In this document: in pieces, positions 12,248 to 16,521 of the stretch | Layout of the letters: every line of letters starts with the position of its first letter | How positions within the stretch are numbered: the stretch's first letter is position 1 | Assembly: GCF_000010065.1 (NCBI RefSeq) | Contig: NC_006576.1 | Span: 690,001-722,000, forward strand | Source: Synechococcus elongatus PCC 6301 | Lineage (GTDB): Bacteria; Cyanobacteriota; Cyanobacteriia; Synechococcales; Synechococcaceae | Reading direction: 5' to 3' | DNA length: 32,000 bases | Made by a program: the position numbers and the translations under genes | Notes under the pieces: generated by a model | Databases searched by the model: none | Seen by the model: only the letters and a program-made list of their open reading frames with translations | Told to the model about the DNA's origin: nothing

Positions 12248-12315
12248 GCTGCGATCGCAAGATTCTTCAATTCGATCAGCCTATCGTGTTCTGGGCAGGA
12301 TTCTTCGAGTGGCGA

Positions 12316-12672
12316 CTAAGCCGAGAAGGAGCTACCGCAGCCGCAGGTCTGAGCCGCATTGGGGTTAGTGAACTTGAAGCCACCACCAATCAAAGCGGTG
12401 CTGTAATCCAAGGTCATGCCGTAGATATAGAGAAGGCTTTTAGGATCGCAGACGACGCGGAAACCGTCGTAGTCATAGACTTCATCTTTCTCGTGGATCC
12501 CTTCAGGCGTGATGAAGTCCATGGTGTAGGACATGCCCGAGCAACCACCCTGACGCACGCCTACCCGCAGCAGTAAATCGGTACCCTGCTGGGCTTGCAT
12601 GGCTTGCAACTGTGCCAAGGCAGTTTCACTGATCAAAATGCCTTTCTGAGGGGCAGCCGTTGTTTGCGTCAT
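12316..12672 (-). CDS. A-type iron-sulfur cluster carrier (HesB/IscA/SufA family)
   Basis: 118 aa. It has GGCSGMSY and the C-terminal CGCGSSF signature. Confidence 0.88.
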   Translation of the reverse strand: MTQTTAAPQKGILISETALAQLQAMQAQQGTDLLLRVGVRQGGCSGMSYTMDFITPEGIHEKDEVYDYDGFRVVCDPKSLLYIYGMTLDYSTALIGGGFKFTNPNAAQTCGCGSSFSA

Positions 12673-12819
12673 GTCGTTAGGACTCCTAGCGAACCATTCA
12701 ACCCGTGGATGGCCTGTGTTGCCATTCTACAAAGGCAACCTCGACGCAGGAATGTAGGGTGGGGCTTTCTTGGGATTGGAATAGTGCGGGGGTCAGCCTA
12801 AAGCCTCTGAGGTATAGGC

Positions 12820-13527
12820 TCATTGATTCGGTTGTGATGGGGCCGGAATGAAGCCAACAGGAATTGGGGGGGCCGTGGGAATGACCTCCTCGCGGAGGGC
12901 AGCAGCAGTGTTGGCAGACGAGGGAATGAACGTGGGGATAGGCGGCGCGATCGGGATCTCGACAGCAGCAGTATTGAGAGAACGGGGAGTCAATCGCCGA
13001 GGGAATTGGCTTTGCGGTGAAGCAGGCGGAGCAGGCATCACAGCGGGCGGCTGCGTTGGAGCAGGTGCCGGGTTTTGAGGATCCTGATAGAAGGGGTTTT
13101 GAGTATTTTGAGGTTGTAAATTCGTGCGCAGGGCTTTTTCTTCCTCAAACTGCTCTTTTTCGCGCTGCAAGCGTAACCGCGCCCGTTCGAGTTCAATGGC
13201 GGCAAATTCGCCGCAGTTAGTGGAGGGCGGCGAGCTCAGCGGCACAACAATGGCGACAAACGCCCCAAAGTTCGGTGTTTGGCTAGTGCTGAAGTTTTGG
13301 ACATTGGTTGAAGACTGACTGGCATCAATGCCATAGAAACCCGCCTGTAGCGAAGTTCGACTATTGATGTTTTGGGAGCAGGTAACCCCGTCAGGTGTAG
13401 TGATCGACTCCTGGGCAGGCGAGTTTTGGAAGTTATTAATCGAGAACGGAACAGACTGTGCCAACACACTTTCTGTCACAGCGAAAAAGCTGCTCACTGC
13501 ACAGAGAATGAACCGCTGCAGCTTCAT
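12820..13527 (-). CDS. Secreted modular protein of unknown function (islet gene E): globular domain, coiled coil and Pro-rich tail
   Basis: ORF 12820..13596. The start is set at the ATG at 13527, giving the signal peptide MKLQRFILCAVSSFFAVTESVLA/Q. A charged helix ELERARLRLQREKEQFEEEKALR follows, then a P/Q-rich tail with the repeated IPxAPPIP motif. Confidence 0.55.
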   Translation of the reverse strand: MKLQRFILCAVSSFFAVTESVLAQSVPFSINNFQNSPAQESITTPDGVTCSQNINSRTSLQAGFYGIDASQSSTNVQNFSTSQTPNFGAFVAIVVPLSSPPSTNCGEFAAIELERARLRLQREKEQFEEEKALRTNLQPQNTQNPFYQDPQNPAPAPTQPPAVMPAPPASPQSQFPRRLTPRSLNTAAVEIPIAPPIPTFIPSSANTAAALREEVIPTAPPIPVGFIPAPSQPNQ

Positions 13528-13640
13528 ACTTTGTCCCCACACACCTACAGTCACCCATGACTGCACGCAATTATAGTAACGCGCTGTTTCAAGCAACCTG
13601 GACCGCGTGACGGAGAGTAACTTTTGCTGTGAATCAGGGA

Positions 13641-14099
13641 TTAGTTGCCGGGGCGAGGCGGCTGAGGGGGTGCGGTATTGGGGCGGGTTGGTGTATTAGG
13701 CGTGTTGCTGCCAATTTTGACGAGACTACAGACCCGCTGCGCGATAGTCACGCGATTACCCTGTTGGTCACGAACGGTGGGATTGACAGCAGGCATGGCA
13801 CAGACATAGAAACTGCGCGGTTGGCGGTTAGTGATCGTGGCAGAACCTACCACGCGCCGGACTTGACGAGGTCCTACTCCGATAAGGCGGGTTGCTAGAG
13901 TAGCGTTAGGTTCTAGACGATTACCCGGTCGATCTTTATCAACAACGACTGGGTCTAAGTAGTAGTACCTGAACTGATTATCAAAGTTGCGAACTTCGAA
14001 GAAGAATGAGGTTTCGGGCTGCCTAATGTCACGTCGAATAATCGCGGGAGAAACAGCTTGGGCAAGGAATAACGGCAGCGTGATCAGGAAGAGTGGCAT
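13641..14099 (-). CDS. Secreted beta-rich protein of unknown function (islet gene D)
   Basis: 152 aa. It has the signal peptide MPLFLITLPLFLAQAVSPA, two Cys residues and a Pro-rich C-terminus (TPNTPTRPNTAPPQPPRPGN). It starts 16 nt after the gene A stop. Confidence 0.55.
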   Translation of the reverse strand: MPLFLITLPLFLAQAVSPAIIRRDIRQPETSFFFEVRNFDNQFRYYYLDPVVVDKDRPGNRLEPNATLATRLIGVGPRQVRRVVGSATITNRQPRSFYVCAMPAVNPTVRDQQGNRVTIAQRVCSLVKIGSNTPNTPTRPNTAPPQPPRPGN

Positions 14100-14115
14100 G
14101 GTGAAAGGAAAAGGT

Positions 14116-14671: not shown

Positions 14672-14732
14672 AATATCAGTGATTCATAGTAGCTGTACTG
14701 AGTTCAGTGACCAGATCAACTTACTGGAACTT

Positions 14733-15275
14733 CTAAGGTGTCGGAGCACAAGTCAGTGAGTACTGCAGTGAGAAGTTGACTGGAGTTCCATCTGTATTTG
14801 TCCTTCCAGACAAGAAGCTACCTCCGCCTTGTGGGCCAATAGATCCCCCTAAAGTGAAGTCACTATTAGTCAAAACACCTAGAGGTAAATTAGAGAAAGC
14901 ACCAGAACTTGAATTCAGTGTAGGTGTAGTGTTACCAGTATTATCTGGAATACTTCCGGTCAGCTTATACACTGGGCTCGAATAGGAACTACCTCCACGA
15001 GTAAAGGCTGTCACAGTCCCACTTAGTAGATATAGATTATCTACAGTGGTTGTCACATCAACTGATACGTTAGAAGCCAAATCAAGCTCCCTGGTTGTTG
15101 GATTGTAGATTAAAGAGTCCGCAGGACTAATATTCGCACCCAGAATACAGGAAGGAGTAATATCTCCTTCCAAGGTAATAACGCCATCTGCTTTTGCGGG
15201 TAGAACCGCAGAAAAGGCTAACAGGCTAGCAGCGGCGGAAGCGGTGACGATTCGGGTCAAGAACTGTTTAGACAT
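14733..15275 (-). CDS. Secreted fimbrial-subunit-like protein (islet gene B)
   Basis: 180 aa. It has the signal peptide MSKQFLTRIVTASAAASLLAFSAVLPAKA/D. The mature N-terminus is DGVITLEGDITPSCILG and the C-terminus is GTPVNFSLQYSLTCAPTP. It is S/T/G-rich and its local GC is about 40%. Confidence 0.6.
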   Translation of the reverse strand: MSKQFLTRIVTASAAASLLAFSAVLPAKADGVITLEGDITPSCILGANISPADSLIYNPTTRELDLASNVSVDVTTTVDNLYLLSGTVTAFTRGGSSYSSPVYKLTGSIPDNTGNTTPTLNSSSGAFSNLPLGVLTNSDFTLGGSIGPQGGGSFLSGRTNTDGTPVNFSLQYSLTCAPTP

Positions 15276-15636
15276 GGCTCACTCTCACTCTCTTTAGGAG
15301 AACTTATTCGCCCCGGAAGTTTGAGGGAGAGCTCGGTCTTCTTTGCTCTTTCTCTTGGCTTCCTTAACTACAGTATGGAGCAAATCTAAAGACACGAATG
15401 CCGGAATGTGCAACTCGCAACATATTTTCGTATTAGCCGTTACAGTTTCGTCACTCTACGAGCTTCGGTTTTTTATCTTTCGTTCAAAATCGTCTCAAAG
15501 CCTTGTCCCAGCTAACTTTTTGTCTTTGACTGGGCTGCCAACTCTAATAATAGTTTTTCACTCTTGAGAACTCGTGATAGAGCTTTTTCAATCCTCAAAA
15601 AAAGACGATATAGAAACCTCTATTCCTTACAGGCCA

Positions 15637-15658
15637 CAAAAAAGGGGCGATCGCCCCT
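15637..15658 (-). terminator. Rho-independent terminator after islet gene C, built on a HIP1 palindrome
   Basis: The 16-nt perfect palindrome aggggcgatcgcccct spans 15643-15658. On the minus strand it is followed by TTTTTT (complement of 15638-15643). Confidence 0.65.
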
Positions 15659-15704
15659 GGACTGCCCCTCCTTCATGCTGCTGTTGTGCTCAGGCTTGGG
15701 TTCC

Positions 15705-16319
15705 CTAGGGTGTCCCTGTCGGGCCGATGATGCCCGTTGCACCACCCGCCGTTGGCGAAATGGTCACGGTCAACCGCAGCGTGTAGTTACCGGCTGTAAA
15801 CGGCTGCGACTGGGGATTCTGGGGCAACGCCTTCGACTGGATCTCCACCGTTGTTTCGCCTGAGTTGGCCAGCGGAAACTGGGTTGGAATTTGCAGATCA
15901 CTCGATGTCGAGGCGGTGTTTGCTCCTGACAGCGCATAGCGATAGAAGAAGGTTGCGGCGCCGGTAAAAGTTTCAGGTTTCGTTGTAAATGAGGCTGGCG
16001 GGGTAATCGTCACCAGCCAAGTTGAGGGGTTGTTGACATTCACCACCACCCGCGCCGGACTTCCATAGTTAAAGAAACCGCCCGTTTGGCTATCGATCGT
16101 GTAAGTCATCGTGCCATCTGTGACACTGCGGATCTCCCCTGTTGGATCGACTGTGCCACTGAATTCAACGGTTGTTGTCTGAGTCTGGGCTACAGCCGGT
16201 GGAGCCATTGCAAGCAGACTTGCTGCTACGGCAACGCCTCCGCTGGCCATGAGCCACCGCGAAGCTGGTTTGATCGATCGACGCTTCTCTGCAAAAGACA
16301 CTGCGACTACTCCCGCCAA
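15705..16319 (-). CDS. Secreted fimbrial-subunit-like protein (islet gene C); start uncertain
   Basis: 204 aa counted from the TTG at 16319 (alternatives are an internal GTG and the ATG at 16250). The signal region is KRRSIKPASRWLMASGGVAVAASLLAMAPPAVA/Q. The mature N-terminus is QTQTTTVEFSGTVDPTG and near the C-terminus lies FTAGNYTLRLTVTISP. Confidence 0.6.
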   Translation of the reverse strand: MAGVVAVSFAEKRRSIKPASRWLMASGGVAVAASLLAMAPPAVAQTQTTTVEFSGTVDPTGEIRSVTDGTMTYTIDSQTGGFFNYGSPARVVVNVNNPSTWLVTITPPASFTTKPETFTGAATFFYRYALSGANTASTSSDLQIPTQFPLANSGETTVEIQSKALPQNPQSQPFTAGNYTLRLTVTISPTAGGATGIIGPTGTP

Positions 16320-16521
16320 ACTTGCAGCGCCGTACGCTGTTTCTCCATCCTATCGACGGATTTCTGGGAAGGCCGCAGCGATCGCTGCTTCAACAGAGGC
16401 CACGGTAACGAATCCTGCAATCTGCAAGGTAGGTTGAGAATAAAATCTGAAGTCTGGCTGTAGGCAATCTTGCCGAGTCAGCTTGGGATCTTTGAGAGTG
16501 ACGACGCAGGAGACGATCGCA

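Follow-up and report, generated by a model that had tools for sequence, protein, structure and literature searches.

Five consecutive minus-strand genes of the cyanobacterium Synechococcus elongatus PCC 6301, located between acnB (Synpcc7942_0903) on one side and an IscA-type gene (0909) on the other, are analysed here as part of a 32,000-nucleotide stretch of the chromosome (hereafter the window, to which all positions refer). We find that these genes, Synpcc7942_0904, 0905, 0906, ORF2 (in the region of the 0907 stub) and 0908, are best explained as a chromosomally fixed, allelically hypervariable copy of a conserved subunit/gene 2/gene 3 cassette that circulates among bacteria and phages, and whose subunits would form an usher-less pilin-like polymer or coat, a reading to which we give roughly even chances. 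What is new here is the association of pilin-like subunits with a novel accessory set, at a locus that lacks an usher.

The window is 99.85-99.9% identical to PCC 7942 (CP000100.1, ~905-926 kb, reverse strand), and differs from UTEX 2973 (CP006471.1) by just two single-nucleotide polymorphisms across 6.5 kb; it therefore represents the PCC 6301/UTEX 2973 lineage of S. elongatus. An earlier note, made from the letters alone, had read the block as a cell-surface module of five signal-peptide genes with no recognisable enzyme motif. This description agrees with what we find, the products being of a secreted or cell-surface type: all five open reading frames (ORFs) are present on the minus strand, the N-termini of their products have a hydrophobic core followed by an AxA-type site according to a heuristic prediction (AVA, AKA, ATA, AQA and VLA, followed by Q, D, Q, V and Q, respectively), and none of the five proteins has an above-noise match in Pfam or NCBIfam. 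For 0905, SignalP support for the signal peptide has been published (PMC6091082). The module is likewise real, but rather than being unrelated its genes comprise three paralogous subunits and two accessory cassette genes.

A family of pilin-like subunits

The subunits are encoded by 0904 (15705-16319; its start is ambiguous, being either TTG at 16319 or ATG at 16250), 0905 (14733-15275) and 0906 (14116-14580, also delimited as 14116-14601), all on the minus strand. 0904 and 0906 are recognisable as paralogues in direct comparison (BLASTP E=1.7e-11) and 0905 joins them at the profile level, with less than 30% identity between the paralogues. Word-indexed searches recover almost no relatives outside S. 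elongatus, with 0905 being nearly homologue-free among 5.8 billion proteins. An exhaustive profile search of 1.84 billion representatives recovered 106 proteins at E<=1e-3, nearly all of them 145-180 amino acids (aa) long and matched from end to end. Conserved across the family are two cysteines, one close to the mature N-terminus and the other C-terminal, together with a Pro and an AGxY motif.

An AlphaFold2 (AF2) model of 0906, built from a 45-sequence alignment, is an all-beta sandwich of high predicted quality (pLDDT 89.7, pTM 0.76). Foldseek searches of the PDB with this model returned the PapG pilin domain, CfaB, FimF/G, CS17, CsuA/B, PapE and PapA, along with the archaeal CanA, at probabilities of 0.96-1.0, TM scores of 0.40-0.51 and E-values of ~1e-3 to 1e-2. 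The model of 0905, built from a nine-sequence alignment, is of moderate confidence only (pLDDT 67.5) and gives weak fold matches, and a search of a viral structure library yielded nothing decisive. Modelling hence assigns the subunits a pilin-type immunoglobulin (Ig) fold. At the profile level the family also aligns (E=0.018) with a fimbrial major subunit in the PDB, 10ss_a, the N-terminus of the family lying opposite 'ADGTITFNGKVTDKTCTIS'. The central part of the subunit profile was additionally matched 6 times in P0049 (828 aa) and 21 times in P0057 (5692 aa), and the fold core thus appears, from these profile matches, to occur also as a tandem repeat in large adhesin-like proteins.

The mature N-terminus typical of the family reads x-[VIL]-x-F-x-G-x-[VI]-x3-C and begins 11-13 residues ahead of the Cys. 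A motif of this type constitutes the donor strand in the Fim and Pap pilins. It is found in 0904 (TVEFSGTV), in 0905 (VITLEGDI) and in most of the 45 family members. The exceptions include 0906 and its orthologue, whose mature chain begins only four residues ahead of the Cys, which is the situation in tip subunits. 0904 is further distinguished by a Gly/Pro-rich C-terminal tail and by the loss of both conserved cysteines. Their joint loss suggests that the two cysteines may pair with each other, either within one subunit or between subunits.

A three-gene cassette shared by bacteria and phages

The two remaining genes of the block are ORF2 (13641-14099, minus strand), the product of which is a predicted secreted protein with a mature length of ~135 aa and two conserved cysteines, and 0908 (12820-13527, minus strand), which has, besides a signal peptide, a domain of ~85 aa with two Cys, a coiled-coil segment and a Pro-rich tail that is variable. 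Profile comparisons identify 0908 as gene 3, and ORF2 probably as gene 2, of a conserved cassette with the order subunit, gene 2, gene 3, which in the window corresponds to 0906, ORF2 and 0908. The 3' half of 0908 (12855-13111) contains short imperfect direct repeats (three of 31 nt and two of 18 nt) that encode the Pro-rich tail; this tail shows indel differences between alleles, and is missing from the homologues in phages and in the bacterial contigs L017 and L018.

Among bacteria, a distant cyanobacterial contig (L017; 41% GC, HIP1-rich and adjoining COP23) encodes a subunit, immediately after it an ORF2 homologue (E=6e-15) and then a homologue of the N-terminal domain of 0908 (E=1e-28). 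The same order, with a gene 2 of ~130 aa, recurs in a metagenome-assembled genome of Pseudomonadota (L020) and in two high-GC contigs (L022 and L024). In L025, a 6.9-kb low-GC contig, the cassette stands among genes for a T7-type single-stranded DNA-binding protein, an endonuclease I and a primase/helicase (2769-6924), neighbours which place it in the early/replication region of a T7-like phage; this contig also carries a second, divergent subunit gene. L018 has the subunit and gene 3 only. In all, the subunit and gene 3 occur together in 7/7 of the bacterial contexts examined, with gene 2 lying between them in six.

The relationship to phages emerges from several directions. In the PHROGs collection the subunit corresponds to phrog_25895 (0904, E=4.6e-12; 0906 also matches) and gene 3 to phrog_37374 (matched by 0908), both of them phage families of unknown function, and the subunit is encoded by ten Vibrio phages. 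The T5-like Vibrio phage pVp-1 contains the complete set directly upstream of its holin and endolysin, as gp077 (subunit, E=3.5e-38), gp078 (gene 2, E=0.0085) and gp079 (gene 3, E=4.5e-17). A gene-3 relative is encoded by 440 viral contigs in IMG/VR, and it is preceded by a subunit and then gene 2 in 70/70 of the fetched loci with enough upstream sequence. Conversely, when hidden Markov models (HMMs) built from viral sequences only were run against all 186 ORFs of the window, they picked out 0904 (E=4.8e-15), 0906 (E=1e-3) and 0908 (E=3.7e-15), and the gene-2 HMM ranked ORF2 first, if weakly (E=0.11). An alignment of nine gene-2 proteins, ORF2 among them, is coherent and keeps the two cysteines in register, and in a profile-profile comparison (hhalign) the match has E=0.005. 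The block is thus tied to the phage cassette by subunit and gene-3 profile matches and by collinear order, with the gene-2 homology being weak. Scans of reference genomes with the gene-3 profile and with a hand-made C-terminal pattern, and scans of JGI metagenomes and IMG/VR with a cyanobacterial-type profile, returned nothing. The matches described above show the tripartite cassette to be widespread and common to bacteria and phages. We found no paper describing phage-encoded pilin-like cassettes or gp077-079 of pVp-1.

Most of the viral cassettes (L033-L107, from IMG/VR) are accompanied by a conserved same-strand gene of ~290-320 aa about 1 kb upstream, with the motifs GLDINGVIYRYT, GYIFRETDDW and a C-terminal MQY, and without a match in Pfam, PHROGs or the PDB. 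T5-like Vibrio phages have proteins of 854-864 aa in the equivalent position, and the large upstream proteins of pVp-1 and D93 have no Pfam match. S. elongatus does not have the conserved upstream gene, which may represent a fourth component peculiar to phages.

Neither a PapD-like chaperone nor an usher was found at the viral or bacterial cassette loci. No PapD-like chaperone domain (PF00345/PF02753) was matched by the block proteins or the gene 2 homologues in Pfam even at E<=10, the rest of the genome not having been searched, and there is no ORF of the size of an usher (PF00577, ~800 aa) between acnB and iscA or beside the cassette in the bacterial loci examined. The homologues of gene 2 and gene 3 have no Pfam match, and sequence searches of the PDB with the two proteins gave nothing chaperone- or usher-like, with gene 3 lacking any informative match. 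A suspicion raised by eye, that gene 2 might be a single PapD-N-like domain, found no support in these Pfam and PDB searches. The block also contains no known RNA families. There is no reverse transcriptase near it, which, along with the low identity of the paralogues, would speak against a diversity-generating retroelement or gene conversion among them as the source of the 0905 variability.

ORF2 is intact in the window, UTEX 2973, UTEX 3055 and the metagenomic lineage L009, and its ratio of nonsynonymous to synonymous substitutions (dN/dS) between orthologues is ~0.07. It is therefore a real gene under purifying selection, which PCC 7942 has lost: in that strain and in three SRA assemblies a segment of ~52 bp (14012-14063), retained in the window and in UTEX 2973, is deleted between ATTCCTT and ATTCTTC micro-repeats. 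The resulting frameshift leaves PCC 7942 with no more than an annotated 70-aa stub (0907) in place of ORF2, and laboratory strains could differ in surface or exoproteome phenotypes because of it.

A fixed site with deeply divergent alleles

The block occupies the same acnB-iscA site in 5/5 of the S. elongatus-lineage assemblies recovered, namely PCC 7942, UTEX 2973, UTEX 3055 (NZ_CP033061, L005) and two metagenomic lineages, the more distant L009 and L012, which shows the block in part. No presence/absence polymorphism was seen among the five, and the view in the earlier note of an accessory insertion wedged between its neighbours is not borne out. The alleles themselves are strikingly different. 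UTEX 3055 and PCC 7942 share 98.5% average nucleotide identity (PMC9239245), and the flanking proteins of the window are 96-100% identical to those of UTEX 3055, with synonymous divergence (dS) of 0-0.3, mostly ~0.03. Within the block, by contrast, tblastn identities between the same strains are 73% for 0904, 40% for 0905, 74% for 0906, 72% for ORF2 and 68% for 0908, and codon-aligned protein identities between alleles range over 38-83%. Synonymous sites are saturated (proportion of synonymous differences, pS, 0.68-0.85), while dN/dS is 0.07-0.4. A 250-nt sliding identity profile of the legacy strains against UTEX 3055 stays at 98-100% in both flanks and drops to 37-75% over ~12797-16550, the sharp edges of this tract coinciding with the stop codon of 0908 and the start of acnB.

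Saturated synonymous sites, low dN/dS and sharp edges together indicate old alleles that have been exchanged or maintained by recombination rather than a recent acceleration, such that the "fast-evolving" character proposed in the earlier note applies to the extreme divergence between strains and not to its tempo. That note had also listed the missing integrase, transposase, border tRNA and flanking direct repeats, and we likewise found none: the ORFs and annotation of the window show no integrase or transposase between acnB and iscA or at the block edges, there are no direct repeats at these edges, and the nearest tRNAs lie at 7492-7656 and 22462-22534. With the edges thus unmarked, exchange probably proceeds by homologous recombination through the flanks. 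The route of acquisition, which the note had called not evident, has on the other hand a plausible candidate in the carriage of the same cassette by phages. We conclude that the locus is fixed in position but allelically hypervariable, and is replaced wholesale between near-identical strains.

In four of the five genes, the alleles of UTEX 3055 and L009 lie nearer to each other than to that of the window, with 0905 being about equidistant in all comparisons. 0905 falls into at least five deeply diverged allele classes even in this small sampling, its signal peptides being 63-97% identical and its mature parts 26-49%. The AT-rich intergenic region that carries the 0905 promoter and 5' untranslated region (UTR) (15276-15704) is better conserved between alleles (0.64-0.71) than the sequence on either side of it (0.3-0.4). 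The first kilobase of acnB is a mosaic with 86-92% identity to UTEX 3055, which is consistent with hitch-hiking alongside the block. Short tracts of 86-93% identity to UTEX 3055 amid 98-100%, with the look of mosaics produced by recombination, are seen in acnB 5' (17050-17550), minD (23300-23800) and dnaX (10547-10797).

HIP1 desert, GC trough and codon usage

The window contains 91 exact copies of HIP1 (GCGATCGC) against 1.1 expected from shuffles. Around the block they occur only at 12251-12258, 15647-15654 and 16378-16385, exactly where the earlier note had placed them, leaving one copy in the interval 12259-16377 as against 13.3 expected (Poisson P=2.4e-5). The HIP1-free gap of 3396 nt is the longest in the window, and its length is reached in 0.4% of random placements of 91 sites. 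Depletion extends to one-mismatch HIP1 sites (1 vs 9.1 expected), CGATCG (4 vs 19.3) and GATC (23 vs 43). The lone internal copy had been assigned to a terminator palindrome, and it does form the stem of an intrinsic terminator hairpin 3' of 0904 (15643-15658, minus strand; read from 15658 it is AGGGGCGATCGCCCCT, followed by a T-run). A count of ~7 copies in acnB offered for comparison was too high, the actual number being 5.

The desert is no artefact of amino-acid composition. An intragenic HIP1 must encode A-I-A, [SGRC]-D-R or x-R-S-[LPHQR], and we counted these peptide contexts. Outside the block there are 87 of them against 17.0 expected from composition (7833 aa), a five-fold enrichment, and 74/87 (85%) are actual HIP1 sites. 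The five block proteins have one such context against 1.7 expected (902 aa) and no HIP1. Per residue, the expectation is equal within the block and beyond it, and composition is therefore ruled out as the cause; what the block is missing is the HIP1 imprint that long-resident genes bear. HIP1 is scarce in the orthologous blocks too, with 4 copies in UTEX 3055, 4 in L009 and none in L012.

A GC trough coincides with the desert, as had been proposed, and both departures from the background are significant, though the trough is the narrower of the two: the 500-nt GC minimum of 0.41 (z=-4.4) is the deepest of the window, and windows below the mean minus two standard deviations start at 13901-15301, giving a trough of ~13900-15800. 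Codon usage and the GC content of third codon positions (GC3) are aberrant only in 0905 (GC3 0.35, z=3.3) and 0906 (GC3 0.34, z=3.1), with 0904, ORF2 and 0908 having near-normal GC and ordinary codon usage. The GC3 of 0905 is low, 0.31-0.39, in every allele examined. The compositional signature expected of a genomic island is hence seen across the whole block for HIP1, and in 0905 and 0906 only for codon usage. The idea of a foreign history holds insofar as the DNA of the block has had a history different from that of its housekeeping flanks.

A 360-aa ORF on the minus strand (26582-27664), labelled psbA-like by size and position only, also has no HIP1 and accounts for the third-longest HIP1 gap (26257-27772); its GC3 is 0.75. 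HIP1 may thus be avoided by highly expressed native genes as well, in this case with a codon bias opposite to that of 0905.

Expression and published phenotypes

0905 is reportedly the most abundant protein-coding transcript of PCC 7942, is strongly induced in the dark in UTEX 2973 (log2 fold change 7.3) and is dispensable (PMC6091082). Its published transcription start site maps to ~15365, which leaves 90 nt to the ATG of 0905 and 785 nt to that of 0906. Mutants of sigF1 and pilB have elevated 0905 and 0906 transcripts, and exoproteomes in which the two proteins are enriched (PMC11345509). Together with the signal peptides, this presence in the exoproteome would fit, if indirectly, an exposure of the products at the cell surface. 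Given the loss of ORF2, the phenotypic and exoproteomic data from PCC 7942 may reflect a crippled system.

Proposed mechanism and alternative explanations

Under the explanation that we favour, the subunit gene is triplicated in S. elongatus as 0904, 0905 and 0906, and after Sec-dependent export the subunits would assemble into a surface or extracellular polymer or coat. 0905 would be the abundant, antigenically variable major subunit; 0906, lacking the N-terminal extension, would sit distally or initiate assembly, and 0904 would be minor or basal. ORF2 and 0908 may serve specifically to fold, assemble or anchor the subunits, in place of the PapD-type chaperone and usher that the locus lacks. 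Hypervariability, sharp recombination edges and the presence of the cassette in phages are in keeping with a structure that faces phages or grazers, on which negative frequency-dependent (diversifying) selection might act. Together with such selection, phage-mediated or recombinational import of alleles would then account for both the variability and the foreign composition, and xenologous origin with repeated allele import for the HIP1 desert and the low GC3 of 0905 and 0906.

Could the anomalies instead be by-products of expression and protein composition in native genes, with HIP1 shunned by those that are highly expressed and Ser/Thr/Asn-rich secreted proteins having no peptides that could encode it? 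The reported abundance of the 0905 mRNA would speak for this, as would the lack of HIP1 in the psbA-like gene and in the gene for an RTX protein downstream of acnB, as well as in rDNA and ribosomal-protein genes (Delaye 2011, PMC3025956). Yet HIP1 contexts are expected at nearly equal rates per residue (1.7/902 aa vs 17/7833 aa), 0905 and 0906 prefer AT-ending codons, the opposite of the psbA-type bias (GC3 0.35 vs 0.75), the desert spans all five genes and their spacers rather than 0905 alone, and saturated dS beside flanks with dS of ~0.03 cannot arise from expression; we regard this possibility as improbable. A single recent horizontal insertion, that is, a classical genomic island present in some strains only, fares slightly worse and is quite improbable in our estimate. 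HIP1 scarcity and atypical codon usage have indeed served as criteria for xenologues in PCC 7942 (PMC3025956), and 0905 is almost free of homologues in 5.8 billion proteins; nevertheless, the site is the same in all five assemblies examined, including those divergent at the species level, neither an integrase nor a tRNA or direct repeats mark its edges, codon usage is unremarkable in three of the five genes, and cassette homologues occur in the chromosomal context of another cyanobacterium.

The remaining alternatives concern what the products do. The most serious is that they are monomeric, disulfide-locked secreted Ig-like proteins with, for instance, a ligand-binding or shielding role in the periplasm, outer membrane or medium, forming no polymer, with ORF2 and 0908 as partners or anchors rather than assembly machinery; we consider this possible, although rather unlikely. 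In its favour, AF2 models 0906 as a complete sandwich, with high confidence for the N-terminal strand. The conserved cysteines occupy the first and last strands, and their joint loss from 0904 befits a bond within one molecule; moreover, 0905 and 0906 have been obtained as soluble exoproteins, and an usher is missing. Set against this are the N-terminal motif of the donor-strand type of Fim/Pap pilins, its specific absence from one paralogue as in tip subunits, the nearest structural neighbours, which are almost all polymerising pilins, and the very high expression, which suits a structural polymer. Alternatively, the subunits could be pilins of the ordinary chaperone-usher kind, served by a chaperone and an usher from another part of the genome, in the manner of CccS/CccP/Slr0019 of Synechocystis. 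The pilin-like fold and N-terminal motif are compatible with this, and an unlinked usher has a cyanobacterial precedent (PMC4390875); but 0/~80 of the cassette loci analysed have a PapD- or usher-sized partner even as gene 2 and gene 3 are present, phages with the three-gene set only would have to rely on host machinery, and the block gives no SCPU, PapD_N or Usher signal in Pfam, all of which makes this alternative highly improbable.

Several points also weigh against the usher-less polymer that we favour. No polymer has been seen. The structural matches of 0906 to pilins are at the level of the fold only, and 0/45 family members match Pfam models including Fimbrial (PF00419) and SCPU (PF05229). 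A bond between the N- and C-terminal cysteines within a subunit may lock the N-terminal strand and so disfavour strand exchange. ORF2 is linked only weakly (E=0.005-0.11) to the gene 2 of viruses and proteobacteria, and no resemblance to chaperones or ushers is detectable in the sequences of gene 2 and gene 3, the latter being far below usher size. PCC 7942 still exports 0905 and 0906 to the medium despite having no functional ORF2, and deletion of 0905 and 0906 in a pilB background did not reduce biofilm formation (PMC11345509). Finally, should the alleles have circulated for long in the HIP1-rich S. elongatus, this reading accounts for their lasting HIP1 poverty only in part.

We also advance, as a more tentative and rather unlikely extension, that the cassette constitutes a previously unrecognised, self-contained PapD- and usher-free pathway for a pilin-like donor-strand polymer or coat on Gram-negative envelopes, which phages would use to remodel or mask the host surface, for instance for superinfection exclusion or for keeping progeny from adsorbing to debris. 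S. elongatus might then have domesticated and triplicated it as a hypervariable anti-phage or anti-grazer layer, a role that, if true, would explain why the major subunit is the most abundant transcript.

Comparison with known systems

The subunits resemble those of chaperone-usher pili (FimA/F/G, PapA/E/K, CfaB, CsuA/B) in being Sec-exported proteins of ~150 aa with a predicted pilin-type Ig sandwich (Foldseek probability ~1.0), in having an N-terminal x-V-x-F-x-G-x-V-x3-C and a C-terminal G-x-Y-x5-V-x-C/Y strand, and in the presence of several paralogous subunits per locus, one without the donor-strand-type N-terminal motif and the putative major one antigenically variable. Unlike in these systems, the block has no PapD-like chaperone, usher or Pfam Fimbrial/SCPU match, the disulfide partner would be C-terminal rather than in the adjacent strand, and the cassette links two unrelated small accessory proteins and is often carried by lytic phages. 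Usher-independent donor-strand fibres, such as TasA, archaeal CanA cannulae, bundling pili and threads, also have Ig or jelly-roll subunits, which in these fibres polymerise with no chaperone-usher machinery, and CanA is among the structural matches; however, they have no sequence relationship to the block and different accessory genes, and polymerisation here is conjectural. Two further candidates were set aside. The Microcystis CT pilus has a unique non-Ig fold and a different cluster with glycosyltransferase and methyltransferase genes (PMC12397347), and no CT pilin appears among the Foldseek PDB matches. The CccS (SCPU)/CccP (PapD_N)/Slr0019 (usher) system (PMC4390875) is defined by Pfam domains that are absent from the block.

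As a locus, the block is reminiscent of hypervariable surface-antigen loci, such as O-antigen rfb with hitch-hiking gnd, fliC and type IV pilin islands, in its fixed site, sharp identity cliffs, allelic divergence far above that of the genome, conserved termini or signal peptide around a variable centre, and mosaic 5' end of acnB. Its cargo, in contrast, is a protein cassette and not a glycan or motility gene set. The HIP1-poor xenologues of PCC 7942 share with it HIP1 scarcity and atypical codon usage (Delaye et al. 2011, PMC3025956), but its position is conserved and codon usage is atypical in 2/5 genes only; the main text of that study makes no mention of 0904-0908. With the phage families phrog_25895 and phrog_37374 the comparison extends to gene order, which is identical in pVp-1 (gp077-079), although the phage copies have a single subunit gene and mostly a conserved upstream gene of ~300 aa.

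Other features of the window

Just downstream of acnB, on the plus strand, lies the gene for an RTX calcium-binding-repeat protein (19160-20128), a second secreted and compositionally odd gene adjoining the block: it has no HIP1, a GC content of 0.49-0.52 and GC3 of 0.49, and the protein is only 78-80% identical between the UTEX 3055 and L009 lineages. Next to it, an alpha/beta-hydrolase gene (20204-21127) accounts for 11/24 of the small differences to PCC 7942, including two single-base indels; its product is 95.9% identical to that of UTEX 3055 here and 99.3% in PCC 7942. These differences may be sequencing errors of the kind reported for the original PCC 6301 sequence (PMC9239245). A second low-GC stretch at 3901-4900, with 500-nt GC down to 0.434, overlaps a 164-aa ORF (GC content of second codon positions 0.26) and intergenic DNA, and a single HIP1 copy, at 3916, is found in 3901-4163.

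Implications

PCC 7942 and UTEX 2973 are leading model and chassis cyanobacteria, and their reportedly most abundant mRNA, 0905, can now be placed in a three-component pilin-like cassette, at a locus that is among the most variable of the species and is linked to gene sets on hundreds of phage-like viral contigs. The frameshift of ORF2 in PCC 7942, as against the intact gene in PCC 6301, UTEX 2973 and UTEX 3055, offers a ready natural experiment, and the loss of ORF2 may explain both the recovery of 0905 and 0906 as soluble exoproteins and the absent phenotype. For engineering, a very strong and dispensable promoter and secretion unit has been identified. On the methodological side, a HIP1 desert can mark a recombination-exchanged allele cassette, in addition to the strain-specific insertions with which such deserts might be associated. 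If the usher-independent fibre or coat is true, pilin-like proteins would gain a new route of assembly, and the envelope modifiers carried by phages a new class. The function of the reportedly most highly expressed gene, 0905, and that of a common phage cassette thereby become directly testable.

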